A DNA stretch of 64,000 nucleotides, from the NCBI GenBank assembly GCA_044221725.1, contig JBGAON010000005.1, positions 256,001-320,000 on the forward strand, in the 5' to 3' direction. Both the position numbers and the translations under genes were made by a program. The notes under the pieces were generated by a model, which did no database searches, had not been told where the DNA came from, and worked only from the letters and a program-made list of their open reading frames with translations. This DNA is from Elusimicrobiota bacterium (GTDB lineage Bacteria > Elusimicrobiota > Elusimicrobia > F11). Positions 46,195 through 64,000 of this stretch are shown one piece after another; within the stretch, counting starts at the first letter, position 1, and every line of letters begins with the position of its first letter.

Positions 46195-46470
46195 ATGTCC
46201 AATACGGTAAAAATTAACGACGCCGAGAAACCCACGTCACCCACCGGCAAAAAGCCATCGCCGCGCGTGGCGTTTGTTAATTTCGATCAATGCACCGGCT
46301 GCGAAGCGTGCATTGCGGTCGCGCCGTGGGACAACTGCCTCCTCCGCCAAAGTGACCTGCCCGAAACGTCCCACGTAAAAACAAACAACGAGGCCTGCAC
46401 CGGTTGCACGCTTTGCATGAAGATTTGTCCGTGGGATGCCATTACGATGGTTCCGCGGCCTTCGGCCTAA
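46195..46470 (+). CDS. 2x[4Fe-4S]-type ferredoxin
   Basis: CTGCEAC and CTGCTLCMKICP motifs. Confidence 0.88.
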   Translation: MSNTVKINDAEKPTSPTGKKPSPRVAFVNFDQCTGCEACIAVAPWDNCLLRQSDLPETSHVKTNNEACTGCTLCMKICPWDAITMVPRPSA

Positions 46471-46645: not shown

Positions 46646-46702
46646 CTGATTCAAATGCCGCATGTGGGCGAATGTGGGTCATTGTTGCTCTTGTGAGACA
46701 AG

Positions 46703-46787
46703 GTGTATGGCAGTTTGTATGGCATTGCTCTGGAATCTGCCATCAAAAGTGTATGGCAATTCGGATTTGTTGGCAGAGGTGATGGCA
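46703..46787. repeat. Cluster of TGGCA-core short repeats (candidate integrase arm sites)
   Basis: gtgtatggca 46703, ttgtatggca 46715, inverted tgccatca 46738, gtgtatggca 46749, tgttggca 46768, gtgatggca 46779. Confidence 0.65.
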
Positions 46788-46888: not shown

Positions 46889-47707
46889 ATGTTGCCCAAT
46901 CCCCTCTATGCTAAAGAGTCCAGCGAATTCTGGGCTCTCGTCAGATCTTCTTCTGAGAAGTTCGGCTATTCGAAACGGAAAGATAATCTATTGAAGCGAT
47001 TTTCAATTGAGGACCTCGATGTTTTTAAAGAGCGTTTTCCCATCGATTCCAAACTATGCAAAACGGTTGTAGATTATTTGAACTTTCGAGCTGAAGTGTT
47101 GGAGAAAAAGGTGCTCCCCAATCTGATGGATCGGCTTGAAGCTAAGAAAGAGTTTGAGAAATTATTGGGCAAGTATAAGCCCAAATTTCCTTTGGTGATG
47201 AATAAACAGAAGGGAGAGAAGCGTCATTACAATTATCTTTCCTGCATGGTGAATATTATCGCTGAAAAGCTCTTAGCTGATAAACCCTGCAACTTTAGCC
47301 CACGAGGGTTGTGTGTTCTGACCGACAAAGAAGGAAGACCAATTAAGGTTTTATCTCGATGGTTGGATGGCGCGTATCCAGACGTCATAAATCCAGTAGC
47401 TATTTGGGAGATCAAGGAATATTACGGAACAACCACATTTGGAAGTCGCGTTGCGGATGGTGTTTATGAAACCCAGTTGGACGGATATGAGATCAATGAG
47501 GCTGAAAAAATATCCAACAAACGGATAAAACATTATTTATTCGTCGATGATCGGCGAACTTGGTGGGACATGGGAAAATCATATCTTTGTCGTATGATCG
47601 ACATGTTGCACATGGGTTTTGTTGACGAAATAATTTTTGGAAGGGAAGTGGTTACTCGTTGGCCCGAAATTGTCCGATCTTGGGATTGCGAATCACCAAG
47701 TAAGTAA
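46889..47707 (+). CDS. Putative type II restriction endonuclease (PD-(D/E)XK)
   Basis: LDGAYP...WEIKEY motif, low GC, adjacent to a DNA methyltransferase. Confidence 0.65.
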   Translation: MLPNPLYAKESSEFWALVRSSSEKFGYSKRKDNLLKRFSIEDLDVFKERFPIDSKLCKTVVDYLNFRAEVLEKKVLPNLMDRLEAKKEFEKLLGKYKPKFPLVMNKQKGEKRHYNYLSCMVNIIAEKLLADKPCNFSPRGLCVLTDKEGRPIKVLSRWLDGAYPDVINPVAIWEIKEYYGTTTFGSRVADGVYETQLDGYEINEAEKISNKRIKHYLFVDDRRTWWDMGKSYLCRMIDMLHMGFVDEIIFGREVVTRWPEIVRSWDCESPSK

Positions 47708-48547
47708 CAACCTTTCTTTTACATCTTCGCCGATCATTACCTCGCCGCCATTCTGAAATCTTTTTAGCATCGAACTGCTTCCTCCAATCAAGATTTCTCG
47801 TTCGAATAGGCCCTCTGGAATGCCCAAGTTAATTACTTTCTTCCCTGATTTTTTGTGCCCGTCAATTGAGAGGGCCACCTTTGCACCGCGATCCTTGCAA
47901 TCAATAATTGACTCAATAAGATCGGGAAGTTTAAACGATTGAGCGCCGTAAAGTATTGCCTGTGAATCCACATAAGGAGGGTCGCAGTAAATCAGGTCGC
48001 CTGATTTTGCCATGTTCATTGTTTCGGTAAATGGCTGATTAATAAAACGTGTGAACTGAACACGTTCTTGCCATTCAAAAGCTCTTTGCGCAAATGATTC
48101 CGGGGGAATAGGTTTATGAGGGCCCACCGGAGTGCTGATGGTTCCTTGTTTTGTGAATCGAATCACGCCCCCGTAACACGTTCTGCTGATAATCAGTAGG
48201 TCGCAGGGGTTGGGATTGGCATTGTATCGAGCCAAGGTCTCACGATAAATTACTTCCTTGTTTTCCAGTAGTTTCGGAATTACATCAGAATAATAATTGA
48301 TTAATGTCTCCGGCTCCCTTTGGATGAGTTGCCAGAGGTCAATCAATGGCGACAGCGTATCGCCTGCGATTGCTTTATCTGGTGAGAGTGTTGCCAGAAT
48401 TGCGCCAGTCCCAATAAATGGCTCTATGAATGTTTCGTATGAGTCTGGGAAATGAGAAACGATTTCGTGCGCGTATTTGTATTTGCTGCCAATCCATTTT
48501 AGAAGTTGTCCATTCGGCTTGCTTGGGACGAATACTGCTGGTGTCAT
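47693..48547 (-). CDS. Dam/D12-class N6-adenine DNA methyltransferase
   Basis: KWIGSK, EPFIGTGA, YCDPPY. Confidence 0.92.
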   Translation of the reverse strand: MTPAVFVPSKPNGQLLKWIGSKYKYAHEIVSHFPDSYETFIEPFIGTGAILATLSPDKAIAGDTLSPLIDLWQLIQREPETLINYYSDVIPKLLENKEVIYRETLARYNANPNPCDLLIISRTCYGGVIRFTKQGTISTPVGPHKPIPPESFAQRAFEWQERVQFTRFINQPFTETMNMAKSGDLIYCDPPYVDSQAILYGAQSFKLPDLIESIIDCKDRGAKVALSIDGHKKSGKKVINLGIPEGLFEREILIGGSSSMLKRFQNGGEVMIGEDVKERLLLTW

Positions 48548-48706: not shown

Positions 48707-49735
48707 CTAAACCGGGATTTTGCTGATATTTTTTAGATTCGGTAGATATGTCACAGCTTCTTTCAGGCTCGACGGCAACAAATGCGCGTAAATCTGTGTC
48801 GTGACGACAGTCGAGTGTCCCATCATCCGGCCAATTCGTAAAAGATCGACCCCCGCCATCGCCAAATGCGACGCAAACGTGTGCCTCAGCGAGTGGAGTG
48901 ATCCCTTATTGATTCCGGCGCGCTTAAGTATTCGCGAGTAGGATTGGGAGAACGCGATCTCTTTGTAGTACCAGGGGATAACGCGGCCCTCTCCGTTTTG
49001 TGAGGCAGCGCGCCAAATTTTGAGATGTTCGATCAACGCCGGGTGCATGGGAATTTCGCGCTCCTCCCGGTCCTTCGGGTGCCACTCTTCGTTCGGCTTG
49101 ATACGCACAATCCCCGCTTGGAAATCCACGTCTTCCCACTTCAAGTTAAGCATCTCGCCACGCCGAAGCCCCAGATAGACCCCCAGATTAATGGCCGTTT
49201 GCCATAACGGATCCGCCGCCTTGAGAAGCGAATCGATTTCCTCCAGAGTGTAGAACACGGGGCGCTTTTTTACAGTCGGCATTTTTCGAACGCCCCAAAT
49301 GTTGGAAGAGGCGTAGCTCCATTCGCCAGCTTTCTTCATGGCGGACTTGACCGTGACCAATTCGCGGTTGATGGTGGAGGCTTCAATCCCTTGATTCTTT
49401 CTGGTGAGCTTGAAGTCTTCCAAGTACTCTGGCGTCAAATCTCGTAACGTCCTTATAGGCATATATTTTCTGATGTTGGAAAAGACGACCCGAACTCGCA
49501 CCACAGATGCGGGGGCCATGTTGGCCTCGCAATAGTTCATGTATTGAGCTACAAAATCCTCCCAGAGGATTTCTTTTTCCGCTCCGTTCTTTTTGGCGTC
49601 GAGCCTTTTCTCGATGTCAGCCATTTCAATCCGCGCCAGGCGGATATTGCTTCCCAGTGATTTTTCCTTCACCTTCCCGTCTTCCCGCCAATAGGCGGAA
49701 TACGAATTTCCTCGTTGCCGTAATGCGACTGCCAT
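48707..49735 (-). CDS. Tyrosine integrase with N-terminal arm-binding-like domain
   Basis: GLRRGE, HSLRHTFAS, MGH, TQIY. N-terminal RGNSYSAYWREDGK..KSLG. Confidence 0.95.
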   Translation of the reverse strand: MAVALRQRGNSYSAYWREDGKVKEKSLGSNIRLARIEMADIEKRLDAKKNGAEKEILWEDFVAQYMNYCEANMAPASVVRVRVVFSNIRKYMPIRTLRDLTPEYLEDFKLTRKNQGIEASTINRELVTVKSAMKKAGEWSYASSNIWGVRKMPTVKKRPVFYTLEEIDSLLKAADPLWQTAINLGVYLGLRRGEMLNLKWEDVDFQAGIVRIKPNEEWHPKDREEREIPMHPALIEHLKIWRAASQNGEGRVIPWYYKEIAFSQSYSRILKRAGINKGSLHSLRHTFASHLAMAGVDLLRIGRMMGHSTVVTTQIYAHLLPSSLKEAVTYLPNLKNISKIPV

Positions 49736-49738
49736 AAG

Positions 49739-49942
49739 TCAGACCCCCCGTTTTATTATTCGATGCAGACGAACCCACTGCTCCAACGCCTCCATCTCGA
49801 CGCGAATAATCCGCTCTCCGGATTTTACCGCCCGAATTTTTCGAAGGCGAATCCATTCCCTCAACGTGTAGGGGGAAACGCGAAGCCATGCGGAGGCTTC
49901 TTTAACGGTGAGTAGTTTGTTCGTCTGCCCTGTTGTTTCCAC
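49739..49942 (-). CDS. Excisionase/HTH_17 DNA-binding protein
   Basis: LLTVKEASAWLRVS..TLREWI...KIRA.K.G..IR; directly upstream of the integrase. Confidence 0.88.
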   Translation of the reverse strand: METTGQTNKLLTVKEASAWLRVSPYTLREWIRLRKIRAVKSGERIIRVEMEALEQWVRLHRIIKRGV

Positions 49943-49996: not shown

Positions 49997-51364
49997 CTAT
50001 GCCAAGTCTTCGACGTAGCTGATTCGCGGAGCAATTCGCATTTCCTGGACCGCCTGAAGGCTCATATATAGCGCGTCCAGGAGATCGTCGCGGCCGCGGG
50101 GAAAATTGACGAGTTCCTCTTCCAAATCCGGCAAGCTCTCCGGCAACCGAATGGCTCCATTTTCAAAGAGGACAGCGAGGCTTCGGATGCGCCGCTGTTT
50201 GTCGCCCGTGGTCGTGATGCCTTTGATGGGCAGGCGGGCGGTCGCCTCATCGACGCGCAACACCTGAAGCATGGATTGTTGGTAAGCGTTATTCTCTATG
50301 CAAACCAAGGTTGGTTTCCAAATGTGGCAGAACCGCTTGATAGTTGTGACTTGTTCCGGGAATTGAATATGAGCTCGGGTTGCTTCTAAGACGTAGGCAT
50401 CCTTTTCGCCTTTTGGAATGCCGACAACAACGTATCCAAACCTTGAATGGGACTCCTTGGATCCGGACGCCAAATCAACGCCGATGTAAATATTCATGTC
50501 TTCGGGCCGCACGGTATAACGGCAAGAGCGAAGCCATTCCTGCTTAAACTCACTTTCCTGTACGGCGACATCGTTCAGCATTTGTAGGGAATAAGAACTG
50601 GCTCCCATCATGTTCCTTAACTCTTCCAGCTTTTGTTCCGAGAACCGTTCGGGGAAAAGAAAATGTTTCTTGCCCTCTTCGTCTTTCCACTCGGCGCGCT
50701 GGACAATCTTTTTCCAATGATTAAATCCAGGCGTGCTGAGTATGTGGCCGTAAAGGTCCTGCTGGTGCCATCGTGTGCCCACGATGCAAAGCTGACCGTC
50801 AGGCTCAAGCGATGGAAGGATGACACCGGTAAACCAGTCCAGTAATTTCTCTCGTTGCCCGGGCGCGTAGGATTTGGTGTTGGCCACCACGTCGTCCAGA
50901 ATGATGAGATCGTTGTGCATGGAAACCAGATTGCCCATCACACCGCCACAGGCAATGGATGGTTCCTTCACAACACGGGACCGAGGAATGGTGATGCTGT
51001 CTTCCGTCCACTTGGCGGCATTGGCATCCCAAGTGCCGTGGAGCTTTCGGAAGTTCTCATTCATGGTGATGTGCTGTTTGATCGCGTCCAATAGCTTCCG
51101 CGCAATCCCTTGCGTTTCGGCGATTATGAGAACGCGCAGATTGAGGTTTCTGGCCAGCCGCCAAAGCGGATAGCACGTGGTGACGACGGTCGACTTGAGA
51201 TGGCCACGTGGAGCCAACAATAGGAGGTATTGGTTCTCCAACAACGCTTGGTACCAGTCGATGTGAAGTCGAGTGAGCGCCTTGTAATCCAACACGTCCC
51301 GGCTGAACGCGAAAAGATCCTCAAGATGATCCACCGGCAGGTTTATTTTCTCTGGCTGTTTCAT
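49997..51364 (-). CDS. terL: Phage terminase large subunit
   Basis: Walker A-like APRGHLKST, Walker B LIILDD, GTRWH, nuclease GVDLA, ENNAYQ, DDLLDA. Confidence 0.9.
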   Translation of the reverse strand: MKQPEKINLPVDHLEDLFAFSRDVLDYKALTRLHIDWYQALLENQYLLLLAPRGHLKSTVVTTCYPLWRLARNLNLRVLIIAETQGIARKLLDAIKQHITMNENFRKLHGTWDANAAKWTEDSITIPRSRVVKEPSIACGGVMGNLVSMHNDLIILDDVVANTKSYAPGQREKLLDWFTGVILPSLEPDGQLCIVGTRWHQQDLYGHILSTPGFNHWKKIVQRAEWKDEEGKKHFLFPERFSEQKLEELRNMMGASSYSLQMLNDVAVQESEFKQEWLRSCRYTVRPEDMNIYIGVDLASGSKESHSRFGYVVVGIPKGEKDAYVLEATRAHIQFPEQVTTIKRFCHIWKPTLVCIENNAYQQSMLQVLRVDEATARLPIKGITTTGDKQRRIRSLAVLFENGAIRLPESLPDLEEELVNFPRGRDDLLDALYMSLQAVQEMRIAPRISYVEDLA

Positions 51365-51600
51365 GATTCGGCCCCCTCGATCAATGGTTGTTCAAAGAAT
51401 CGTTCTAAATGTTGGTCCGCGTTTTCATAGGGAGAAATTCGTGAGTTAGAACGCTGTGGGAAACGGTTACCCCTTTGTGTTCGAGAGGCGGGCGAGAGGG
51501 GAGCATCCCCGCATCGATGGGCAAAATTTACGCTTTTCAAAATGCCCTCCTCGAAATTCCTCTTTCCCGACGGAGAAATGTCAATTGAATGTGCATTCAA
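51361..51600 (-). CDS. Small hypothetical protein
   Basis: Fills the gap with 4-nt start/stop overlaps to both neighbours; no recognisable motif. Confidence 0.35.
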   Translation of the reverse strand: MNAHSIDISPSGKRNFEEGILKSVNFAHRCGDAPLSPASRTQRGNRFPQRSNSRISPYENADQHLERFFEQPLIEGAES

Positions 51601-52193
51601 TTGCCTCCAGGCGCACCACGTTGCGCCGTTTCGGTGGTGTTGCCGATGGATTTTGGGCCGGCGGGATCAGCGGCCGCCTCCCTTTTTTGTGGTTCGAGAC
51701 CAGAGGCGCCTAGGTTCGTTTCGACGATTTTTTCTTTCAGGGGGTCGGCGGATTTCACTTCCTTGTGCTGGCGAAGGATCATGAGCGTATCCTCGCTCGC
51801 CGACCAGCCTGAAGAAGCAGGAGCGCTTTGGGCCTTGAGGGCTTGCGCGGCCTGGGACATTTTGTCGGCCAAAACCGCAATGGTGAGCGCCAAATCGCGG
51901 ATGCCCTGCGGTTTTTCTTTTTTGAGTTCGCCATCAAGCCGATGGAAGGTCAATCCAATGCTTGTCCAGCAGTGATCGATGAACGCTTTTGACCGCTTGT
52001 CTGTTTTGGATTGGAGGGAGGTCGGCATGCGGGACGTTAGGGATTGATCCGCGTGACTCTTCCAATAAGACAGAAGCCCCTTGCTGATGCCCAACTCTTT
52101 GGCAACGTCGGTGAGAGGTTTGCCCGCGGCCAATTTCGCCAATGCTCCTTTGATTTTTTCCGGGCTGTGACGCTGGGGACTTTTATTTTTCAT
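51597..52193 (-). CDS. HTH protein, candidate terminase small subunit
   Basis: N-terminal HTH (GKPLTDVAKELGISKGLLSYW) followed by helical segments, upstream of terL. Confidence 0.65.
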   Translation of the reverse strand: MKNKSPQRHSPEKIKGALAKLAAGKPLTDVAKELGISKGLLSYWKSHADQSLTSRMPTSLQSKTDKRSKAFIDHCWTSIGLTFHRLDGELKKEKPQGIRDLALTIAVLADKMSQAAQALKAQSAPASSGWSASEDTLMILRQHKEVKSADPLKEKIVETNLGASGLEPQKREAAADPAGPKSIGNTTETAQRGAPGGN

Positions 52194-54091
52194 TGGGGTT
52201 GGCCTCCATTTGGTTTGGGAGGAGGCAGAACAACGCGTGACCCGGGGAAGTGATCTTGCGCCATTTTGATCACTTCGACGGATTTTTCGTCGTAATACTG
52301 GCGAAGCACTTTCTCGTGGTCATCAGAACCATTTTCCAGCGCGGTGGGGATATCAAGAGGAAGTGAACCTGTGAACCTAGGTGAACTATTCTCCCTCGTC
52401 CTATTATTGGACTCATCAAGGAGGTCCGATTTAGGTTGGGGTGAAAAAGGTTCACTGACGTTCACAGGTTCACTTTTGGGGGAGGGGGCTTTTTCCCCAT
52501 TTCCCCCTTTTACCCCTACCGCATACCAACGCTCAGCGGATCGTCCCGCCGTGGGAACTTGTCTGAAGTACACTAAACCGCGGGTTTGTAGAAGGCCAAG
52601 GGCGGAACCGAGACTCCCGGATTTGTGGTGACCAAAAAGACGAGAACTGATTTCGGTCCGGGTCAAACCTTCGGGAGATGAGCGCAAAATGGAGAGGACT
52701 TCATCCGCCAATGGATTTCCGAGACTGTCGCCAAATATGTACAAGGCTGATTCTTCCGCGTAGCGCCACACTTCGAGCGCAGCTTCAAGGTGTTCTTTTC
52801 TGATGACGGTTGATTGATCGAGGAGCGCATAGATCAGCGCCAAACGCATCACCTGAGCCTCGGCGCGAGAGATCACAGCGCCGAACAGACCTGGCTTACC
52901 CTCCGACAGTTTCTCGTATACCTCACGCCACAGCTTTCGAGCCTCAGGATCGCGCACAATGCACGTGCGCCCCAATTGTTGAGCAAACATCGCCGCTTTT
53001 TCAAACGCGAGATCCAATGGGCCAAAATCGACCGACCCAATGTCTCCACCCTCCGGCAGAACTTTTGACCGGCGGACACAGAAGAAAAGAATGCGGTTTG
53101 CAAAGCCATTGCCGATCTCCGTTCGATCCAAATAACGGCACAACTCCTCCTTGGTAATGTGACCGCACATACTGATGTGAGCCTCGGTGGCTTTGGCGGG
53201 GGTGTTTTTGGTGAGAATACGAAGCCCACCGGTGTCCCACGCCTGGCGCACGACACCTGAGAGGCTGTTGCCATCGCGTTCCAGGACTCGCAACGTGGTG
53301 GCGAATTCCGGCTGAAGAGCCATGAGCCTCTTGTCAGAGACACCAGGATCAACTTCAACCATCTGGTAATCTTCAACTTTCCCTTTCTTTTTGATGGGTT
53401 CTCGCTGCTGCACCGCGTCACGCACTGCATAGATGAGTCCTTCACCGGAAGAAAGTCCTGTTTGTACGCAGTCGTCGACCCAATGACCGTCTATGGCTCT
53501 CATTCGTTCGCGGACATGTCCCCAAGACGTTCCTTTCCGGCCCTTCGCTGTCTCGCCGACCAAAACCGCGAAGAGGTTGGTGAAGTGACAGTCGGCTTCT
53601 GCTCTAAAGTGCGCCCCTCGGCCCACCACATTGCCGAAGGCTACGAGTAGCTGGCTAAGGAGACCGACACGATCCGCCTCGGTATGAGGCTCCACCAAAC
53701 GGACAAATTGTCCAGCAAGACCATGGAAGGCCTGCTCGCCCAAGGGTGACGGCCATTTTTGAGAAAACACTGTGGGGGAAGAAGGGGGATATGGGGAATA
53801 AGGGTCTGGTGCGTAGCGGCTGATGCTTTCGGAAATGGTTTTAATCTCTTTTTCAGGGAGCGGTGGAGAGCAGTGGTGTTTATTTTCTTCCATCAGCGCG
53901 GCCAGGATGGCCTCTTGACCCATCCCTTTCCGGCGCATAGCGCCCGCCATGCTGGCAAGGCTTGCGTTTCTAGACCCTTCTGGAATCAATGCCGCCCCAT
54001 TCATGGCCGGATGTGGCGCGGTTGGGAGTAAAAGCCCGTTTGTGAGCCAAGCGGGAGCCGGGGCCAGTGGCGTTAAATCGTTGGTTTCCAT
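52190..54091 (-). CDS. Primase C-terminal (PriCT-1) + DUF3987/YfjI-like P-loop protein (downstream part of split primase)
   Basis: EGSRNASL...AG.M...CSPPL...E...I..S, GETAKGRKGTS, SSGEGL, and a C-terminal winged helix. Confidence 0.8.
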   Translation of the reverse strand: METNDLTPLAPAPAWLTNGLLLPTAPHPAMNGAALIPEGSRNASLASMAGAMRRKGMGQEAILAALMEENKHHCSPPLPEKEIKTISESISRYAPDPYSPYPPSSPTVFSQKWPSPLGEQAFHGLAGQFVRLVEPHTEADRVGLLSQLLVAFGNVVGRGAHFRAEADCHFTNLFAVLVGETAKGRKGTSWGHVRERMRAIDGHWVDDCVQTGLSSGEGLIYAVRDAVQQREPIKKKGKVEDYQMVEVDPGVSDKRLMALQPEFATTLRVLERDGNSLSGVVRQAWDTGGLRILTKNTPAKATEAHISMCGHITKEELCRYLDRTEIGNGFANRILFFCVRRSKVLPEGGDIGSVDFGPLDLAFEKAAMFAQQLGRTCIVRDPEARKLWREVYEKLSEGKPGLFGAVISRAEAQVMRLALIYALLDQSTVIRKEHLEAALEVWRYAEESALYIFGDSLGNPLADEVLSILRSSPEGLTRTEISSRLFGHHKSGSLGSALGLLQTRGLVYFRQVPTAGRSAERWYAVGVKGGNGEKAPSPKSEPVNVSEPFSPQPKSDLLDESNNRTRENSSPRFTGSLPLDIPTALENGSDDHEKVLRQYYDEKSVEVIKMAQDHFPGSRVVLPPPKPNGGQPQ

Positions 54092-54609
54092 TTATAGATG
54101 CCTCCGCTGATGTGGACGCTGGGTGGAGCCACCACATAGCCACCATCTCCTCGGATGTCGATCCCCGGCAAGAGGTCGACCCTGTTTTTCATCGGTTTAT
54201 CGCACGGATGGAGAAAATAAAGGTGTCGCCCTCCACCACCGGTGGCGCATTCAAGCGTGGCCGTCAACGGGCCTTTGCTGACCTCAAGCTCGGCCAGCGA
54301 CACATCTCCGCCCCGCGCTGGGTCAATATCCAACACGACAATATTGCTGACCATGCCTGTCGCAATGCCGATGTTCGCTTCCGGCCAACGACCCCACCAA
54401 TTAAGGATGCGGGCCTCGTTGGTGGTGGCCTCCAACACCCCGTGTTTAACCCGTGGGTGTTTGGCTGGGCTCGAGCATTTGGGATTCCCGCAGGCGCACC
54501 CGCCACGGCCGTCCGGTTCGTAAACCGGAAAAATTGGCCAGCCCTTCCGATTGATGTAATCGAGGGCGGCCTCGCGCTTGGTGATCGCTGTTTTAATCGA
54601 TATTTGCAT
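54073..54609 (-). CDS. Prim-Pol bifunctional primase/polymerase domain (upstream part of split primase)
   Basis: GWPIFP, KHP, WP.ANIGIATG, LDID, TGGGGRHLYF, DIRGDGGYVVAPPS. RBS GGAG precedes the ATG at 54609. Confidence 0.9.
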   Translation of the reverse strand: MQISIKTAITKREAALDYINRKGWPIFPVYEPDGRGGCACGNPKCSSPAKHPRVKHGVLEATTNEARILNWWGRWPEANIGIATGMVSNIVVLDIDPARGGDVSLAELEVSKGPLTATLECATGGGGRHLYFLHPCDKPMKNRVDLLPGIDIRGDGGYVVAPPSVHISGGIYKWKPTI

Positions 54610-54622
54610 TCTCCTCTCCCAC

Positions 54623-54674
54623 AAAAAAAGGCGCTGTCATCGGCGGATCAAATAACCCGCCAACAACAGCGCCT
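54623..54674 (-). terminator. Intrinsic terminator upstream of the primase operon
   Basis: 18-bp stem AGGCGCUGUUGUUGGCGG/CCGCCGAUGACAGCGCCU with three G-U pairs, followed by a U-run. Confidence 0.85.
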
Positions 54675-54694
54675 CGGTTTGTCCGACAACGCTA
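54667..54694 (-). promoter_or_regulatory. Candidate antiterminator hairpin overlapping the terminator 5' arm
   Basis: UAGCGUU-G-UCGG-ACAAA-CCGA-GGCGCUG folds into a bulged hairpin that sequesters AGGCGCUG. Confidence 0.65.
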
Positions 54695-54699
54695 AATAG

Positions 54700-54876
54700 C
54701 TATTGTTTTTTTGATAATTCTCGTTTCAATTCTTCCAACTTCATGCTCCGTTCTTCTTGGATCCGGCAGATGCGGCCATCCTCCCAGCTTAGAACCACTT
54801 TCCCATAGAAGCGACGCTGGCGCATAAGGCGAACCCACTCAAGTAAAATTTCCTCAGGGATGGGCCCACCGCTCAT
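54700..54876 (-). CDS. 58-aa YezD/DUF2292-like micro-protein (absent from the ORF track)
   Basis: Translated manually as MSGGPIPEEILLEWVRLMRQRRFYGKVVLSWEDGRICRIQEERSMKLEELKRELSKKQ. GGAG lies 6 nt upstream; pattern FYG-beta-DG-beta-E..K. Confidence 0.75.
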   Translation of the reverse strand: MSGGPIPEEILLEWVRLMRQRRFYGKVVLSWEDGRICRIQEERSMKLEELKRELSKKQ

Positions 54877-54972
54877 TTGATGCTCCGCATGTTCATAGTT
54901 CTCATATTCAACTCCAAATCCCTATATGTTAGCGATATATGTACAAAAGCTACCTCAAAAGGCAAAAAAATA

Positions 54973-55974
54973 TCAGGCCGTATAAAGCTCAAGTCCCTCC
55001 GGGGTATAAACCTCAGACAAAGTCCAGGACTCGAGCGCTTTTTTCAATTTTTTATCGCCCTTCGCAGCCCACCCCAGCGACCGGCACAGTGTCCGCGCCA
55101 GCAATGCGCTAAGCGTGGCCTGAGCCCCGCTGTAGGCTTCGATGGTTTCTTCCCGGTTTCTCTCTTTGGCAACGTACAAGTCATAGTGGATGCGGGAGGT
55201 GACGTCCTCCCAACTTTTTTGAAAGCGGAGAAGATAGCGTGGATCAACATCCAGTTTTCCTTTGGACCGGACAAAGCAAACCATGTCCAATAATTGGAGG
55301 AAGGCGACGCGGGAATCGACGGCATGCCCAGACGTATTGAGTATCCGAAGCGGAACATCCGACAACTCATTGCGAAGTTTCTCGCTTTCGATTCGAGCGA
55401 TTTCCTCTTCCTTCATTCGCGGGAGGTTCTGTTTATGGGAGAGATCGTTTATGGCTTTTTGAATTCGTTTGTGCGCTTCCTCTTGAATAAGCCATCCCCA
55501 CCGGTCGTCAGCGAGTCGGATCTGCAATGTCAGCCGCTTTAAACTCATAGCCTCATAGTCCCGCGTATAGTTATCCTTTCGCCCGTTGATCCCGACGAAG
55601 GCATAGAAGTGATTGAGATCGTCGAGGAAAATCTTAAAAAAGGCGTCGAGGTATTCGTCTCGTAATTGAATGATTCCTTGTTTGAATAGGTATTCGGCCA
55701 GCCACTTCCGAATCTGCGTATCGGAGCATCCCACGATGCGACCGATCTCGGCCAGCGTCCGGCGCCGCGTTGATTTCCAAAGAAGCATTTGGAGTTGAGC
55801 ATTGAATTTCTTCTGTGTCAGTGGCCGAGTTTCATCGCGGGGAATACCGGTGCGGGGTTGTTCTTCGAATGATTCTGACTTGCGCTGCATAAATAGAAGA
55901 AGATCAACGTCGGAGAAAAAATCCCGACGCGTTTTGTATTGGGGTGGAAGAAATCGGTCCGGCCCATTAACCAT
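54973..55974 (-). CDS. HTH-containing putative regulator
   Basis: RTLAEIGRIVGCSDTQIRKW helix-turn-helix followed by a long helical region. Confidence 0.7.
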   Translation of the reverse strand: MVNGPDRFLPPQYKTRRDFFSDVDLLLFMQRKSESFEEQPRTGIPRDETRPLTQKKFNAQLQMLLWKSTRRRTLAEIGRIVGCSDTQIRKWLAEYLFKQGIIQLRDEYLDAFFKIFLDDLNHFYAFVGINGRKDNYTRDYEAMSLKRLTLQIRLADDRWGWLIQEEAHKRIQKAINDLSHKQNLPRMKEEEIARIESEKLRNELSDVPLRILNTSGHAVDSRVAFLQLLDMVCFVRSKGKLDVDPRYLLRFQKSWEDVTSRIHYDLYVAKERNREETIEAYSGAQATLSALLARTLCRSLGWAAKGDKKLKKALESWTLSEVYTPEGLELYTA

Positions 55975-56028: not shown

Positions 56029-56913
56029 CTAAAACCGTGGGTGAGCTTGCTGGCAGGTTTCTCGAAGGGCTTGATGATTGAGATTCAAATAGCGTTGTGT
56101 TGACGTCAGATTGGAATGCCCCAACAATAATTGAAGCGAACGCAGATCCGCTTTTCCCTGGAGCATGTGCACGGCGAACGAATGGCGCAATAAATGAGGA
56201 TAAACGCGTCGCGTTATCCCAGCGCGGGCCGAATACCGTTTGAATTTTCGCCAAAATCCGTTCTTTCCAAGCCGGGTCCCGGATCGCGTTAAGAACAGTG
56301 CGCTACACCCATTCCCGGATTTGTCGGTTCTTCTTTGCAGATAAGCTCGCAGTGACTTAATCGCCTTCGTTCCAATCGGGACCAACCGTTCCTTTGATCC
56401 TTTGCCTTTCACTTTGATGTAGCCATCGTCCAAGTGGAGATGTTCGACGTTCAGACCGATAGCCTCGCCGATACGAAGTCCGCAATAAAGAATTTCCAGA
56501 ATCGCCTGATCTCTCGTCCCCAAGAAAGTCGACTGCGAAGGAGCCGAAAGTAATCGCTCAACTTCCTCCACCGACAAGGGTTCCACAACGGAGATCTTCA
56601 ATTCGGGCAATATCAGCCCGACCGTTGGGTCAAATTCCGCGTAACCCTTTTCAACCAGAAACCGATGAAATGATCGAATCGCGATGGTGGCGCAGAATCG
56701 GGTGGTTGGGCTCAACCCACGATGGCTCAACTCTCCAACGTATCTATTTGTCAACTTGCTGGTAGCAATAATGGGACCCGAATTCGCTTCTTGAAGGAAT
56801 CGGCCATAAGCCTCCAGGTGATGGCTGTAGGTGATGGCAGTATTTTCGGAGAGCCCGCGATCACTCCGTAGATGATTTAGAAATTCGGACAGATATTCTT
56901 TATGAAAGTTCAT
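56029..56913 (-). CDS. XerD-like tyrosine recombinase
   Basis: RGLSENT...Y, RDQAILEILYCGLRIGE, KGKGSKERLVP, HLLRHSFA, LGH, TQRY. Start placed at MNFHKE. Confidence 0.92.
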   Translation of the reverse strand: MNFHKEYLSEFLNHLRSDRGLSENTAITYSHHLEAYGRFLQEANSGPIIATSKLTNRYVGELSHRGLSPTTRFCATIAIRSFHRFLVEKGYAEFDPTVGLILPELKISVVEPLSVEEVERLLSAPSQSTFLGTRDQAILEILYCGLRIGEAIGLNVEHLHLDDGYIKVKGKGSKERLVPIGTKAIKSLRAYLQRRTDKSGNGCSALFLTRSGTRLGKNGFWRKFKRYSARAGITRRVYPHLLRHSFAVHMLQGKADLRSLQLLLGHSNLTSTQRYLNLNHQALRETCQQAHPRF

Positions 56914-57376
56914 GGCCGTTTGCCTTGGGCTTGAGGACTCGAACGTGTTTCTTGTCGTCCTTTTCGATTTTCCATGCCTTACGAGAGAAGGAAACCATGC
57001 GGGCGCGCACGTTGGCCTCAACATCTTTGCCCTTGGCGAGATCCGCCGCCTGTTTGATGGCGAGCGCGGCGATTTCCTTCACGGTTTTTCCGCCAGCGAA
57101 TAGCATCGGATCGATAGTCGCCGAGAGAGATTCTTTGTTCGATTTTCGACCGCCTTTGCTCCGACCGCCCCCATTGGCGCGGATCAAGGTTTTCGCTTCC
57201 TTGCTGATCTGCGATTCCTTGTAGGATTTTAGTTCGTAGTTTTTAGAGACTTCGATGTCGTTTTCCGATCCGCCGATCTTCAAAACCACCTTATCGTTTT
57301 TGTGACCGACAACGGTGACCGGCGTCCCTTTTTTTGACAGATACTTTTGACCTACTTTTGCGTCGATGGCGTTCAT
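56900..57376 (-). CDS. Lys-rich hypothetical protein (SH3-like N-terminus, winged-helix-like C-terminus)
   Basis: Strong RBS AGGAGG; KVGQKY...VTVVG beta pattern; GKTVKEIA...NVRARM helix pattern. Confidence 0.75.
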   Translation of the reverse strand: MNAIDAKVGQKYLSKKGTPVTVVGHKNDKVVLKIGGSENDIEVSKNYELKSYKESQISKEAKTLIRANGGGRSKGGRKSNKESLSATIDPMLFAGGKTVKEIAALAIKQAADLAKGKDVEANVRARMVSFSRKAWKIEKDDKKHVRVLKPKANGHELS

Positions 57377-57377
57377 A

Positions 57378-57615
57378 TTAGCGCCCTCCTTTTTTTGTTG
57401 TGACTGTTTTCTTGAAAACGGCGAAGTTCACACCTTCGCATTTCGGGCCTTCGATTTTTCGGATGACCCTGCGTAGATGGGGCGATCCATTCTTTGTCTT
57501 GCCCGGACCGATCCTCCGGCGCGAGCTGGCCCGATTGGATCATGTGGATCTTTGATCCCAGCGCCTCGACGATTTCTACCCAGTCGGCCATTTCGAATTT
57601 GATGGTGTTCTGCAT
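57378..57615 (-). pseudogene. Small hypothetical gene, probably frameshifted in a C4 run at ~57480
   Basis: RBS AAGGAGG precedes MQNTIK. Removing one C gives an amphipathic KEWIAHLRRVIRKI and a stop 1 nt before the next ATG. Confidence 0.45.
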
Positions 57616-57935
57616 ACCCCTAGTTGCCTCCTTATCTCGCCCACGTTGCGCCGTTCGTGCAACCCGTTGCCCTGTTTGGGCTATTTTTGCCGCTTTGTCC
57701 GGACCCAAGTACAGCGAGTTCGCGAATCAATCAAGGCCTTTTGTCGTCGACATCGCGCAATAAATCAAATCGATTCCGAGTCATCGAAATTTGGCGATTT
57801 GAGGTTTGTTTGGATAGGGAAGGACTACCTTCTTCAAAATAGGAAGCCAAGTCGAAGATCAAGTTAAAAGTTTTCAGGCGTGGCAATCTTCGATTCCTTC
57901 ATGAAACCGGACAAGGTAAACTCACCTCTTAATCT

Positions 57936-59768
57936 ATGAGTGAAGAAATTCCCAGAAAAGACATTGTTTATTTTTCGTCGGCCAAATATCTGATCGGGTG
58001 TGCGGTGGCGGCTGTCGTCTTCCTATTGATCGGGAAAATTAATCCATTTCCGGCCTGGTTTATTGCAGTGGAAGTGTTTGTGGCGGTGATTGCGCTTTTT
58101 GTCTTTGGGTCCATCCGTGACCGCCTGGACAAAAATGCGCTGACCTATGGCGCGGTTCTCATCATCACAGCGACGTTTTGGGAATCGTGGTGGAGAGAAT
58201 CGGGATTGAGAACCGATTTTTCAGCCGAAGGTTTTGGCGCGATCCTTCGGTTTTTTCAGCACCATTTCCTGTCACTGCATGGCTTAGATGAGATCGTTCA
58301 CGCCGATACCATGTTGTTTATTTTAGGCCTAACGTTTTTTGTCGCGGTCATAGCTCAGACCCGTATTCTCGAAACGATTAGTTTTTCCATCCTCAATAAG
58401 TTCAAAGGAAACGTTGTGCCAACGGTGGCGCTTCTCGCGGCCATCGTCTCATTCTCATCGGGTATTTTGGATGGTGTTTCCATGATCGGCCTGATGATCC
58501 GGACGCTTGTGATCATCCTCTTCCTGGCCAGAATTAAGGATGAAGCTGTTGTGTATGCGGTGGTGGTATCGACGGTGGTCACAACGGTGTGCGGAATGTG
58601 GCTGGCCTATGGAGAACCACCCAACCTCATCATGAAATCCAATCTCTCGCCGCATCTGAATGACGCGTTCTTCCTGCGATATTGCTTGCCGGTTGCCATC
58701 GGCGCTTATTTCATCGTGCTTTGGAACATCAAGCGAAAACTCAAGGGTCAGAAAGTCGACATATCGAAACTGGATGTGCTTGACCTCAATACGGCGGATG
58801 TACGGTTCATTCAGGCGCAACGGCATGGCAAAGTTTTAACGCCGATAGAGTTTGCTGAAGAGCACCGCCAGCAACTGGCCGAGCATTACGAACCGTTGAT
58901 TCGCCGGCTTCATCAGGGTGAGACGCTTGGCGACGCTTTGACGGCCGAGCATATTCCACAAAGTGTCCGGCAATATCTAATGGGGCAATATGTGTCGGAA
59001 GATCTTGCGGAGGCGCTGGATCACCATTACTCAGTCGTGTTGAAAGATGATGCGCTTAATAACGATGATTCCATGCGCAAGATATCCAAGGCGCTGGCAT
59101 GGATCCGCCAACGTCGAGTGCGTACACAATGGATTGGCGGCATTTCGTTTATCCCATTTATCGGACTCTTGGTCTGGCATGCGATTGACCATGACGTTCC
59201 ACTTTTTCTGGCATCTTTCGCCGGATTCGCAGTCGCCTTCTTAGGTATTCTAGGGATCACCAATATGCGGAGATTGGCTTTGCGCGAGGCCCGCCACGAA
59301 TATGCGGAGTACCTTTTTCTTTTCCCGCTTTTCTTCTCGATAACCCTGCTTCAAAAGACCGGTTTCTTTCAGCAGCTTGCGGATTTGCTCCATCACGGCG
59401 TCGAAAAATTGGGCCCACCACACATGGCCTTTCTTCAATTTATCGGGACGGGATTTTTGTCTGCGATGTTGGACAACAACGTCGTAGCGGATTTCGCGGG
59501 CCGGGCGATTATGGGATTGGAATTAAGCGTTCTTCACCTTTTCGCCATGGCCCAGATTGCAGGATACGCGGTGGGGGGATGCTGGACACACATCGGTTCG
59601 GCCCAATCGGTTGTGGCTTATTCGTTCATTCGAAATGAAGTCGACGAACACTTCACGCCGTTTCAGTGGATCAAAGCCATGACCCCTATCGTCTTAGAAA
59701 TTTCGGTTTGGGTGACCGTGGTTATCTATGGCGAGGCTCTCCTTTTGCAATATCTTCCGGAGCATTAG
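57936..59768 (+). CDS. IT-superfamily (ArsB/NhaD/CitMHS-like) ion transporter
   Basis: Multiple TM helices, SGILDGVS, YGEPPN, SAMLDNNV, GGCWTHIGSA. Confidence 0.85.
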   Translation: MSEEIPRKDIVYFSSAKYLIGCAVAAVVFLLIGKINPFPAWFIAVEVFVAVIALFVFGSIRDRLDKNALTYGAVLIITATFWESWWRESGLRTDFSAEGFGAILRFFQHHFLSLHGLDEIVHADTMLFILGLTFFVAVIAQTRILETISFSILNKFKGNVVPTVALLAAIVSFSSGILDGVSMIGLMIRTLVIILFLARIKDEAVVYAVVVSTVVTTVCGMWLAYGEPPNLIMKSNLSPHLNDAFFLRYCLPVAIGAYFIVLWNIKRKLKGQKVDISKLDVLDLNTADVRFIQAQRHGKVLTPIEFAEEHRQQLAEHYEPLIRRLHQGETLGDALTAEHIPQSVRQYLMGQYVSEDLAEALDHHYSVVLKDDALNNDDSMRKISKALAWIRQRRVRTQWIGGISFIPFIGLLVWHAIDHDVPLFLASFAGFAVAFLGILGITNMRRLALREARHEYAEYLFLFPLFFSITLLQKTGFFQQLADLLHHGVEKLGPPHMAFLQFIGTGFLSAMLDNNVVADFAGRAIMGLELSVLHLFAMAQIAGYAVGGCWTHIGSAQSVVAYSFIRNEVDEHFTPFQWIKAMTPIVLEISVWVTVVIYGEALLLQYLPEH

Positions 59769-59790
59769 CCGAAACCGTAGGTGTACTGGC

Positions 59791-60402
59791 TTATTCAAGC
59801 GCAGTGAGGATTTTTTTCTGAATTTCTTCGCCATCGATTGAAAGACTTAACTTTTTGTGAAACAAGCGGTAGTGATTAATGAGGCCTGTCGAATAAGAAG
59901 CAAGTGATAGAGCCATTGTTCTTGCCTTCTCAGCTTGGCGGGAGGACCCACCTAGGGATCGAATCAAAAGATCTGCCAGTTGAAGGAGATAGTCTCCGTA
60001 GATTTCCTTAAGATTCGCAGAGATTCCCTGCTTAAGCTGAAGCAAACCTCTGACTTGATGAAAAATAAGAACAAATGATTCTTCTCTCAATAAAAAATCA
60101 ACATGGGCTTTTACGAGTGCCTTTAAGGCATCTTGATGGTTGTCGTTTTTTTGAACCGACAACTGGCATCGAGCCATAAGCTTGTCGAGTCCGTCTCTGA
60201 GGAGGTTTTCGAGCAGTTCGTCTTTCCCAGAGAAATACTGATAGAAGGTGCCCTTTCCAATATCCGCCTTCTCGGTGACGTCTTCAATGGTTGTTACGTA
60301 GATACCTTGTCTTGAAATGATATCGAGAGCTACGGCCATGAGCGTTTCGCGCGTTAGTTTTTTCTTTCGTTCCCGCCTCGTCAAATCTTCCGTTGCTTCC
60401 AC
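59791..60402 (-). CDS. TetR/AcrR-family regulator
   Basis: RRERKK..TR, TIEDVTEKADIGKGTFYQYFSGKDEL. RBS GGAGG. Confidence 0.93.
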   Translation of the reverse strand: MEATEDLTRRERKKKLTRETLMAVALDIISRQGIYVTTIEDVTEKADIGKGTFYQYFSGKDELLENLLRDGLDKLMARCQLSVQKNDNHQDALKALVKAHVDFLLREESFVLIFHQVRGLLQLKQGISANLKEIYGDYLLQLADLLIRSLGGSSRQAEKARTMALSLASYSTGLINHYRLFHKKLSLSIDGEEIQKKILTALE

Positions 60403-60459
60403 GTTTCCTCCCCAGTACGGGTTATCAAGATAATTACGTGTGAGAATCCTTGCATAATC

Positions 60460-60495
60460 TTGACCGGTCAGTCAATTTTGACTACTGTGTCAAAA
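60460..60495. promoter_or_regulatory. Two adjacent palindromic TetR-like operators
   Basis: ttgaccggtcagtcaa and ttttgac-N6-gtcaaaa, between divergent tetR and otsA. Confidence 0.65.
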
Positions 60496-60548
60496 ATGGG
60501 ACCCGCACACGTATTTTTCCTAAAAAAAGCTGATTCGACGGAGTCAAA

Positions 60549-62804
60549 GTGAAGATCACGCTCCGTCTTGTTTTATCGCTGGTGGCCGTCATAACGATGG
60601 TGGTCGCTCTATTCACGTTTTTGCAAGTCCGGCATGAAGAAAAAGTGATGCTGGAAGAAATGGAACGAAGGGGCGCGCTTCTGGCGGAAAGTCTTCAGGA
60701 TTCTATTGAGCCCCATCTTGCTCCCCGCAATGAAAAGGGACTTGCGAGAATTGTTGAGAAATTCGGGAATCGTGAACGCGTGGCTGGAATTGCGGTTTAC
60801 GGTCCTGACAAATCAATTGTTGCCATGACGAAGAGTCTCGCAGCCTGGCTTCCCGATCCGCCCTCTGCGGTCGCCACCTCTCTTGCCGAAGGAACGGCGC
60901 GGGGTGAGCTTTTCAGTCCTTCAAAAGAAAAAGCAATTTACGGATATTTCTTTCCTTTCACTTCCCCGGACGGCTCCTCCTACTTATTGGCATCCTATCA
61001 TCCCGCCAATCACATTCGCACACGTCTTAGAGACTTGTACCAACAAGGGTTTATCCGCCTGTTCTTACAGGCATTTCTCATTTCGCTTGTAACGATTTTC
61101 ATTATTCGATGGAACGTCATGGCCCCGCTCCATAAGGCCGCTGATTGGATTAAGAAGCTTCGCCTGGGAGAAGAAGGACCCCACGCCTCTCTTCCGAAAG
61201 AACTTTTTGGTCCCCTGGAAAAAGAAGTGACTCGCTTAGCGAAGAGTTTTACGACCGCTCGGGCCGCCGCTGAAGAAGAGGCCAAGCTCCGCCAGCAAGC
61301 CGATTCCATTTGGACCTCCGACCGCCTGCGTGAGTATGTTCGCACGAAACTGCCGGATCAAAAGCTTCTAGTGGTTTCTAACCGCGAGCCCTACATGCAT
61401 GTCCGAAAAGGAAAAGACGTTGACTGCATCATGCCGGCCAGCGGTCTTGTCACGGCGCTTGAACCCATATTGAGAGCCTGTGGTGGCACGTGGGTGGCGC
61501 ATGGAGCCGGAGGCGCTGATAAGGAAATGACCGGTACAGACAATCGGCTAAAGGTTCCACCGGATGAGCCCCAGTACCTCCTTCGCCGAGTTTGGCTTTC
61601 GAAAGAGGAAGAAGATGGCTATTACTACGGATTTTCCAATGAAGGGTTTTGGCCTCTATGTCACATCGCTCATAATCGTCCCGTTTTTAAGCCTGAAGAC
61701 TGGGACTATTATCAAACTGTCAACGGCAAGTTCGCTGACGCCGTTTTGGAAGAAATTGAAAATGACGAAGAGCCTTTGATTCTAATTCAGGACTATCATT
61801 TTGCTCTCCTCCCCCGGTTGATCAAGGATAAGCGCCCGGATGCGCGTATCGCTCTTTTCTGGCATATCCCTTGGCCTAATCCTGAATCATTTGGCATCTG
61901 CCCGTGGCAGCGCGAAATCGTTCATGGAATGCTGGGCGCGGACCTCATTGGATTTCACATCCAACAACACTGCACCAATTTCTTAGACACCGTGGACCGA
62001 ACGGTTGAATGCCGGATCGATTGGGAACGATTCGTTGTTAATCGGCAAGACCACAAAACGCTCGTCAAACCGTTTCCCATCAGTGTTGCGTTAACACCCT
62101 CGGCGACAAATGGATCACCGGCCCCTAAACCTTCCGCTGATAAAGAAGCGATCTTCAAGCAACTTGGGATTAAAGGGCAATATCTTGCCGTGGGAGTGGA
62201 TCGAATTGACTACACCAAAGGCATTATCGAACGGTTCCGGGGCATCGAACGTTTCTTGGAAAAAAACCCCAATTATCAAGGCAAGTTCGTGTTTGTGGAA
62301 TTGGGCGCGCCGAGCCGCACCCTTATCAAACGCTACCACGATCTGATGGCGGAAGTGGAAGAGGAAGCCGAGCGGATCAATTGGAAGTTCAAGTCAAAAG
62401 AATGGCAGCCCATCGTGTTTTTAAAGAAACATCACAGTCATCAAGACATTGAGCCTTTCTACAAAACGGCTGACCTGTGTCTTGTCACCTCGTTGCACGA
62501 TGGAATGAATTTGGTCGCCAAAGAATACATTGCCGCCCGCGACGATGAAGATGGCGCTCTGATACTAAGCCGGTTCACTGGCGCTTCGCGAGAACTTCCT
62601 GATGCTTTCATCATTAATCCCTACGACGTGGATAGAACCGCCGATGCGATACGGGCCGCGTTGGAAATGGAACCCGAGGAACGCCGAAAAAGAATGCGGC
62701 GAATGAGAACAGTGGTGATGGGAAACAACATTTATAAGTGGGGCGCCAACTTGATCGAAGATCTTTCGCAAATCAGATTGGAAACCAACACGCCGGTCGC
62801 TTAA
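60549..62804 (+). CDS. otsA: Trehalose-6-phosphate synthase with N-terminal TM-periplasmic-TM-HAMP-like module
   Basis: VVSNREP, QDYHF, FWHIPWP, VDRIDYTKG, DGMNLVAKEY, preceded by ~250 aa of sensor-like architecture. Confidence 0.92.
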   Translation: MKITLRLVLSLVAVITMVVALFTFLQVRHEEKVMLEEMERRGALLAESLQDSIEPHLAPRNEKGLARIVEKFGNRERVAGIAVYGPDKSIVAMTKSLAAWLPDPPSAVATSLAEGTARGELFSPSKEKAIYGYFFPFTSPDGSSYLLASYHPANHIRTRLRDLYQQGFIRLFLQAFLISLVTIFIIRWNVMAPLHKAADWIKKLRLGEEGPHASLPKELFGPLEKEVTRLAKSFTTARAAAEEEAKLRQQADSIWTSDRLREYVRTKLPDQKLLVVSNREPYMHVRKGKDVDCIMPASGLVTALEPILRACGGTWVAHGAGGADKEMTGTDNRLKVPPDEPQYLLRRVWLSKEEEDGYYYGFSNEGFWPLCHIAHNRPVFKPEDWDYYQTVNGKFADAVLEEIENDEEPLILIQDYHFALLPRLIKDKRPDARIALFWHIPWPNPESFGICPWQREIVHGMLGADLIGFHIQQHCTNFLDTVDRTVECRIDWERFVVNRQDHKTLVKPFPISVALTPSATNGSPAPKPSADKEAIFKQLGIKGQYLAVGVDRIDYTKGIIERFRGIERFLEKNPNYQGKFVFVELGAPSRTLIKRYHDLMAEVEEEAERINWKFKSKEWQPIVFLKKHHSHQDIEPFYKTADLCLVTSLHDGMNLVAKEYIAARDDEDGALILSRFTGASRELPDAFIINPYDVDRTADAIRAALEMEPEERRKRMRRMRTVVMGNNIYKWGANLIEDLSQIRLETNTPVA

Positions 62805-62806
62805 CG

Positions 62807-63580
62807 ATGCAGTATTTGTTTTCGGATTGGCCGGACATCTCTAAGCGGCTTCGTTCTGCGTCTCATAGGCTTTATCTTTTCGACATCGACGGAACTCTGG
62901 CGTCGATTGAAAAAGTTCCACAGGCTGCGCGAATTCATGCGCCATTGCGGCGGCTCTTATATTCCCTTTCCGTCACGCCTCGATCAACCGTGGGAATTAT
63001 TTCTGGCCGTCAGCTTGATGACGCCAGGGAGATGGTCGGGTTGCAGCACCTAATTTATGCCGGGAATCATGGGTTGGAAGTGTGTTTTAACGGAAGCAGG
63101 CATATTGAACGACAGGCTAGAAATCACGCACACGCGCTTGAGCTTATTTACCGTGATGCCAAACAAGCATTTGGCGATGTGCCAGGAGCCATCGTCGAGT
63201 GGAAAGGGCTCACCATGAGTTTGCATTACCGGATGGTCGAGAAGAAAAATATGGCGAAGTTTGAACGAATTTTTCAAGAGGACATCGTCCCGCTTTTGGC
63301 GCGCGATAAATTTCAGCATCGAAAAGGAAAGAAGGTAATCGAAATTATTCCCTTCGGCGATTGGAGTAAGGGAACCGTTGTCGAAATGCTGGCAAAACAT
63401 TTCCGAAAGCCAGTGACGATTTTCATTGGAGATGATGTGACCGACGAGGGAGCTTTCGGTGTCATGGGGCCTGATGATGTCTCCGTCCGAGTTGGACACA
63501 AGGATGATTCGAAAGCTCTCTACTACTTAAAAAACCAGGGAGAGGTAAAAAAACTTCTTCAGCGCTTGGTTAAATTGTAA
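62807..63580 (+). CDS. otsB: Trehalose-6-phosphate phosphatase
   Basis: HAD motifs FDIDGTL, ISGR, GNHG, K, GDDVTDE. ATG at 62807. Confidence 0.93.
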   Translation: MQYLFSDWPDISKRLRSASHRLYLFDIDGTLASIEKVPQAARIHAPLRRLLYSLSVTPRSTVGIISGRQLDDAREMVGLQHLIYAGNHGLEVCFNGSRHIERQARNHAHALELIYRDAKQAFGDVPGAIVEWKGLTMSLHYRMVEKKNMAKFERIFQEDIVPLLARDKFQHRKGKKVIEIIPFGDWSKGTVVEMLAKHFRKPVTIFIGDDVTDEGAFGVMGPDDVSVRVGHKDDSKALYYLKNQGEVKKLLQRLVKL

Positions 63581-63969: not shown

Positions 63970-64000
63970 GGCTATTTACATGCTGTGCGGCCTCACAAGC
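63962..64000 (+). CDS. Start of a small membrane protein (DUF5985-like), 3' truncated
   Basis: MIKAIYMLCGLTS... overlapping the previous stop. Confidence 0.5.
   Translation, partial: MIKAIYMLCGLTS

Follow-up and report, generated by a model that had tools for sequence, protein, structure and literature searches.

A candidate protein-dependent transcription attenuator before the primase operon of a satellite-like element in Elusimicrobiota

What governs transcription into the replication and packaging genes of a mobile element is the question raised by a locus in the window analysed here, a 64,000-nucleotide stretch of the genome of an uncultured Elusimicrobiota bacterium. On the minus strand, a leader composed in order of a 58-aa open reading frame (ORF), a hairpin, a terminator and a ribosome-binding site (RBS) runs into the start of a Prim-Pol primase gene:

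54700..54876, minus strand: 58-aa small ORF, remotely DUF2292/YezD-like, predicted helix-hairpin-helix, candidate antiterminator (from relatives, hhalign and AlphaFold2)
54667..54694, minus strand: antiterminator hairpin with 6-bp lower stem, 2x1 internal loop, 4-bp upper stem and 5-nt loop
54623..54674, minus strand: intrinsic terminator, stem 54674-54629 of 19-20 bp, 7-U tract 54629-54623
54607..54619, minus strand: RBS (54619-54611) and start codon of the first gated gene (primase ATG at 54609), by direct reading

The hairpin and terminator, together termed the gate, on balance probably constitute a protein-dependent transcription attenuator, with the 58-aa protein as its putative binder, in a satellite-like element.

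The geometry largely agrees with that proposed in a first-pass annotation made from the sequence alone. The small ORF does end a few nucleotides before the hairpin, with its TAG stop at 54702-54700 and the 28-nt hairpin starting 5 nt downstream. The bulged hairpin described there is real, as judged by covariation, except that its single bulged G gives way to an internal loop of UG opposite G/A, favoured both by ViennaRNA and by the relatives. Likewise, a terminator with a U-tract does lie just before the primase RBS, its stem corrected from 18 bp with three G-U pairs to 19-20 pairs with 3-4 G-U, by computation and direct reading. As the 5' base of the terminator is also the 3' arm of the antiterminator, with an overlap at 54673-54667 (7-8 nt), the two folds are mutually exclusive as had been claimed, an arrangement conserved in 21 related loci in which both folds covary.

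In the minus-strand RNA the terminator folds with -38.8 kcal/mol (z -7.8), compared with -25.6 for the plus strand of the same DNA. The antiterminator alone folds with -12.4 kcal/mol (z -2.2; 5 of 200 shuffles equally good) and is the best fold until about 54637 has been transcribed, when most of the terminator has been made; thereafter the advantage of the terminator over it amounts to 12.3 kcal/mol. Across the genome, an overlapping alternative hairpin of -9 or better occurs at 11 of 137 strong terminator-like sites, four of the 11 being gate copies. The signal of an alternative fold in the single sequence is only modestly above chance, so that it is covariation in the relatives that settles whether the fold is real. 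An alternative fold arising by chance was considered and rejected from that covariation, from retention of the fold in gates lacking the ORF, and from the genome background count. No Rfam covariance model matches over the gate (E<=5) or over four further loci (E<=2). Upstream, no sigma-70-like promoter above chance precedes the small ORF, and the palindrome-plus-promoter of prophage-type loci, which occurs once in the genome at a prophage on contig C3, is absent from the window. A 10-codon ORF at window 54873-54905 has a stop overlapping the small-ORF start; a similarly placed 10-codon ORF is found in L005, a related element.

Conservation of ORF and gate together bears directly on the antiterminator reading, and the first-pass annotation had named a lack of the overlapping hairpin and terminator beside homologous ORFs as an observation that would speak against it. 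The outcome is divided: among 36 ORF matches (loci L001-L039), both structures lie downstream of 25, while the other 11, including L007-L009, L020, L025, L026 and L036, have none by the pattern used and are counted against that reading; L029 and L030 are probably false matches. The covariation check also proposed there came out positively for both folds in an alignment of 21 gates, made after removal of two near-identical copies and of two loci whose DNA the set already contained. In the antiterminator, 89.5% of cells are paired and 3 pairs (14 cells) have changed on both sides (0 of 500 shuffles; slid controls 24-47%); in the terminator base, 99.5% of cells are paired and 4 pairs (19 cells) show two-sided changes, exceeding 500 shuffles in pairing as well as the slid controls, with the relatedness of the aligned loci meaning that these counts overstate independent events. 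The two outer antiterminator pairs are weak, being unpaired in 12 and 8 of the 21 loci. The antiterminator lower stem uses exactly the first bases of the terminator in all 21. The motif GCG...RGCGY and the internal-loop G are kept while the loop and upper terminator vary freely, as would be expected of a binding site.

Outside these loci the hairpin shape is less informative. Hairpin-only patterns gave 32 matches in viral contigs, eight with a terminator and the same eight with the ORF, all close kin, and 24 with neither; the 5-nt-loop pattern gave 15 matches there, none with terminator or ORF. Loop size itself differs between the window hairpin (5 nt) and that of the C3 prophage (6 nt), and the prophages of genomes G282 and G350 also have 5-nt loops.

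The protein encoded by the small ORF belongs to no Pfam, NCBIfam or PHROGs family (best PHROG E 0.31), and a PDB sequence search returned chance-level matches only. Protein searches gave 5, 5 and 18 matches, two of them named as Elusimicrobia proteins, and with a profile 22 of the 401 Elusimicrobiota genomes gave a match, three at marginal E-values. The resemblance to DUF2292 suggested in the first-pass annotation is borne out at a remote level: the 35-member family alignment matches a profile of DUF2292 proteins with an hhalign probability of 88.2% (E 3e-6, 38 columns), the target profile being a thin one of four sequences. A direct comparison with PF10055 gave a mixed answer, with no match for the window protein at the Pfam cut-off of 22 bits, weak matches (E<=1) for 8 of 35 family members and 21.8 bits for the best relative, P0010; the atlas lead to DUF2292 for the window protein scored only 0.81. 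Judged from these comparisons, the ORF is a real gene and a remote relative of DUF2292/YezD, not a formal member. AlphaFold2 models it as helix, beta-hairpin, helix (alpha-beta-beta-alpha; pLDDT 89.8). A homodimer prediction scored 0.31 and was set aside, and the monomer model finds no fold above Z 2.7 among PDB representatives and no viral match at E<=0.001. The net charge of +3 makes the protein barely basic, within a family range of -2 to +5.

Family members also occur in other settings. Longer ones (73-102 aa, some with the motif apparently doubled; L020, L025, L026, L036) lie directly before excisionase-like genes without a gate, and in the phage contigs of L007-L009 they stand, again gate-less, with the terminase on one side and a portal-like gene on the other. 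Downstream of L028, a true DUF2292 gene, lies a hairpin that by eye has a like shape and that covariance model R1 does not pick. A search of viral contigs and GenBank phages with a canonical DUF2292 query gave no match, so that this one locus, judged by eye, is the sole basis for likening the gate to a canonical DUF2292 hairpin.

The genes behind and around the gate indicate what kind of element it serves:

54073..54609, minus strand: Prim-Pol primase/polymerase domain, 178 aa (PF09250, E 1.7e-43)
52190..54091, minus strand: PriCT-1 plus DUF3987 (helicase-like), 633 aa, in a different frame from Prim-Pol with a 19-nt overlap
51597..52193, minus strand: HTH protein, 198 aa, in small-terminase position (TerS-like, a putative function), with 27% identity to the gene preceding C3-prophage TerL
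51361..51600, minus strand: 79-aa ORF of no family, partly conserved in L005
49997..51364, minus strand: large terminase (TerL), 47% identical to the C3-prophage TerL
49739..49942, minus strand: excisionase-like HTH_17 protein, by family match
48707..49735, minus strand: tyrosine integrase, 72% identical to the integrase of the G282 prophage at the ferredoxin gene
46889..48547: type II restriction-modification cargo, endonuclease 46889-47707 (plus strand) and adenine methylase 47693-48547 (minus strand)
46426..46439, plus strand: likely attachment core at the ferredoxin-gene 3' end, repeated at G000:C2 near 332880
54973..55974, minus strand: 333-aa HTH protein upstream of the small ORF, marking the element family (5 of 401 genomes)
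56029..57024, minus strand: Xer-like tyrosine recombinase, by family match
56900..57708, minus strand: two ORFs of no family; 56923-57837 matches one end of the C3 prophage (84% identity over 922 bp)

Repeats of the ferredoxin 3' end about 30.5 kb apart, at window 46426 and at G000:C2 (same genome) near 332880, mark a whole island of about that length. No tRNA gene was found in the window, the attachment site lying in the ferredoxin gene instead. No portal, capsid or tail gene was found among the scanned ORFs of the island (the core plus 15 cargo and other ORFs); two cargo and four core ORFs have no family. Phage satellites such as PICI and P4-like elements carry integrase, excisionase, primase-helicase, a packaging gene and defence cargo and lack capsid and tail genes, and the same gene set occurs here, with flanking attachment sites and a related full prophage in the same genome. 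The window element differs in having its own large terminase beside the TerS-like gene and a second, Xer-like recombinase; its control would be by an RNA attenuator where PICI and P4-like elements use a repressor or transcription activator. From its gene content, it is read as a capsid-less, satellite-like relative of the prophage family whose capsid and tail genes lie behind the same gate.

Several further features of the island were observed. The frames of Prim-Pol and the PriCT-helicase differ at 54073-54091, a split that the C3 prophage, with its single 740-aa protein, does not have. A run X4 contig that comes from another study carries the split too, and given this split the window element may be decaying in this strain. 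Short arm-like repeats are present at window 46700-46766, and the island may consist of two elements in tandem. The ferredoxin-gene 3' end is an integration hotspot with tandem copies, also at G000:C5 5433, 8137 and 9585, and the prophages of G282 and G350 likewise abut the ferredoxin gene. Cargo across window 57936-64000 and G000:C2 to 332880 includes a transporter, TetR, trehalose synthesis genes, MgtC, MFS, LysR, flavodoxin, superoxide dismutase and hemerythrins. Within the terminal part of the helicase-like gene, at window 52361-52475, a 33-nt inverted repeat with internal short repeats is a possible replication origin of the element.

Gene order is the same (Xer, HTH, small ORF, gate, primase, HTH, TerL) in L004, L005, L006 and L045, the last an entire element of about 11.5 kb between host-like genes. 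In L005, L006 and L045 a serine-recombinase-like gene, so assigned by likeness to the C3 integrase, follows. L055, of the same family and with excisionase and integrase, runs from the HTH gene straight to the primase without ORF or gate. Among L005, L006, L045, L055 and L058, the replication gene is swapped between Prim-Pol, DnaG-zinc-finger and 1100-aa types as the HTH gene, small ORF, TerS-like gene and TerL stay constant, with L055 and L058 lacking ORF and gate. The operon of primase, terminase, excisionase and integrase postulated in the first-pass annotation thus stands in part: primase, TerS-like gene and TerL lie downstream of the gate, and the minus strand is free of terminator-like sites from 54628 to the methylase gene, but gating of the integrase is not conserved. 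The suggested commitment to excision is not upheld, given the serine recombinase that ends L005, L006 and L045 and the presence of excisionase and integrase without ORF or gate in L055.

The 43-kb prophage of the same genome (G000:C3:98300-142420; L040, L041) carries portal, protease, capsid, tail and lysis genes, and a paralogous small ORF and gate precede its protease and capsid genes. It appears complete, is of siphophage type and ends at a tRNA-Gln; its small ORF, preceded by a conserved palindrome, is leaderless-like, with a -10-like box about 6 nt ahead of the start. With the window element it shares one end (the 922 bp at 84%), Xer, Prim-Pol and TerL (47%).

How widely the gate is used was surveyed with a covariance model, which finds five strong copies in the window's genome. 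Of 80 chosen genomes, 17 hold a gate: 14 among the 18 that are ORF-positive and 3 among the 62 that are ORF-negative, an association mostly due to physical linkage. In 18 genomes there are 38 copies, 25 of which lie downstream of a family ORF, with stop-to-gate distances of 23-36 nt in 24 and 146 nt in the remaining one; 13 have no adjacent ORF yet retain the antiterminator fold (94% paired). Ten of these 13 stand before class III nucleotide cyclase genes, one of which is a remnant, another precedes a tail gene of a G282 prophage, and two lie in small elements before replication-type genes, one with the prophage-type promoter and a 10-codon stump that, in L092, keeps the usual stop-to-gate spacing. 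Ten of the 13 are in genomes with the ORF elsewhere; the other three are in genomes without a full paralogue (G392, G298 and G343; 85-96% complete) and count against a diffusible protein. ORF-less gates accompany 9 of 11 cyclase loci (L062:1411-2286, L063:787-1572, L067-L076), which are stand-alone 232-aa class III genes matching PF00211 above cut-off and the Pycsar cyclase PycC, which would lie beside an effector gene, at E 1e-5 only, with neighbours that differ between loci by ORF listing. Six copies of the cyclase gene occur in G282 and two in the window's genome, often near mobile-element ends.

These observations are consistent with the following mechanism. Unaided, the terminator would win, as the energies suggest, and transcription would stop before the primase. 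The 58-aa protein, made upstream on the same transcript, would bind the conserved internal-loop hairpin as it emerges and block invasion by the 3' arm of the terminator, so that RNA polymerase could read on into the primase, the TerS-like gene and TerL. Being diffusible, the protein could also serve gates elsewhere. As the small-ORF gene precedes the gate, the circuit would be feed-forward, setting a delay or threshold, and would lack positive feedback. The 13 of 38 gates without an ORF favour a diffusible RNA-binding antiterminator, one that by analogy would work like BglG on its RAT with an unrelated protein; the tight spacing of 24 of 25 linked gates, which a purely diffusible factor would not need, is counted against it.

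The first-pass annotation had let either the protein or its terminating ribosome stabilise the antiterminator. The protein is probably the likeliest opener, but the ribosome fails in that role, because a ribosome at the stop would cover the 5' arm of the antiterminator and the effect has the wrong sign: blocking 9-15 nt after the stop weakens that fold from -12.4 to between -4.9 and -0.2 kcal/mol in a simple footprint model, and 13 of 38 gates have no ORF at all. By the same model, the ribosome could tune the switch towards termination. This leaves, as an unlikely alternative, attenuation coupled to translation in cis, in which the ribosome finishing the small ORF sets the fold and its product matters little; sterically, coverage of the 5' arm would lead to termination, and uncoupled or stalled translation to read-through. 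The constant stop-to-gate spacing, its persistence at the L092 stump and the destruction of the lower stem in the footprint model speak for such an effect, but ORF-less gates and one gate 146 nt from its stop are hard to place within it, the protein is conserved in sequence and fold across the family, and a free antiterminator cannot outlast a terminator stronger by 12.3 kcal/mol. The ribosome may accordingly act as a modifier of protein-dependent attenuation.

The hairpin could instead be a loading site of the lambda nut kind, or the target of a host factor, with the small protein acting on RNA polymerase or another protein and not on the RNA fold. The low net charge, the three gates in genomes without a full paralogue, and the gate-less family members before excisionase-like or portal-like genes fit this, but a loading site need not build its lower stem from the first bases of the terminator, as 21 of 21 loci do, nor would each gate have its own terminator where one site upstream of many would serve; such a role seems improbable. 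A further idea, quite improbable, is interference, whereby the satellite protein binds the helper's gate or paralogue and delays the capsid genes, with its own gate opened mainly by the helper protein. Satellites often interfere with helper late genes, the satellite and prophage paralogues in this genome share only 23% identity over 48 residues, and their hairpins fall into different loop classes, of 5 and 6 nt; loop class, though, does not split cleanly by element type (the G282 and G350 prophages have 5-nt loops), and the satellite-type genomes G288 and G400 gave no match to the C3 helper capsid protein. The same search, which had no positive control, found none in any of five genomes (G288, G400, G371, G298, G343). 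The reading preferred here remains attenuation dependent on the small protein.

Among known systems, the closest parallel is that of BglG, SacY and LicT with their RAT sequences, hairpins of 29-33 nt that share 6-10 nt with the terminator and on which LicT blocks terminator invasion in the way proposed here for the small protein (PMC5393181). The window gate shares with these a hairpin of about 28-30 nt with an internal loop, a shared stretch of 7-8 nt at the 5' end of an intrinsic terminator, within the RAT range, and a small binding unit of about 55 residues. It differs in having one 2x1 internal loop where RAT has two, and in targeting mobile-element genes instead of sugar operons. The 58-aa protein has no sequence match in Pfam or PDB to the CAT and PRD domains that the BglG family combines; it is predicted to be alpha-beta-beta-alpha with no sensor domain, unlike BglG, SacY and LicT, and a fold search with its monomer model, bearing on whether it may be CAT-like, gave no match above Z 2.7.

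A regulator gene directly before a terminator that gates the rest of an operon is also found in the HutP system of Bacillus subtilis, with hutP placed upstream of the hutP-hutH terminator (PMC12591593). HutP is a ligand-activated hexamer on NAG triplets in single-stranded RNA, whereas the window gate conserves a structured hairpin, and HutP shows no sequence match to the window protein in Pfam or PDB. DUF2292, YezD and OscA, the last of which we take to be a DUF2292 protein, resemble the window protein in size, YG motif and beta-hairpin, from which it departs by an extra C-terminal helix and the lack of a Pfam match. OscA, which shares a transcript with sbp, is a small protein whose function is given as unknown (PMC2996968), and the names YezD, DUF2292 and OscA do not occur in the text of PMC12591593. 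The literature search yielded no mechanism for DUF2292, YezD or OscA, or for this protein-RNA pair; RNA-motif catalogues in supplements could list the hairpin.

What is new is the use of the gate in a satellite replication operon and its ORF-less copies before cyclase genes. This offers a testable function for a widespread family of unknown small proteins, together with an RNA element absent from Rfam; as a switch, an antiterminator of 58 residues in a single domain, acting on a target of 28 nt, would be both minimal and portable. Satellite, prophage capsid and cyclase genes may all be turned on by the same small protein, and the ORF-less cyclase gates may be listening in on the induction of prophages. 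Provided that gates without an ORF respond in trans, the late-gene switch of the phage itself could tell satellites, and genes that possibly raise an alarm, that a prophage has been induced. The broadest form of this idea, which we hold only as a tentative and rather doubtful extension, is an RNA-level tripwire in which a family of 55-60-residue antiterminators is the lytic signal of Elusimicrobiota prophages, read in trans by satellites and by the ORF-less cyclase gates. Were it true, satellite primase-terminase operons would sit behind a copy of the gate, L087 and L092 would have lost their own protein, and transcription of the cyclase genes would be confined to times at which the late programme of a phage or satellite turns on. 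At one such locus, L061:1501-1620, the gate is followed by only the first cyclase codons and then by an MgtC/DUF4010 gene, with an excisionase-like ORF upstream.
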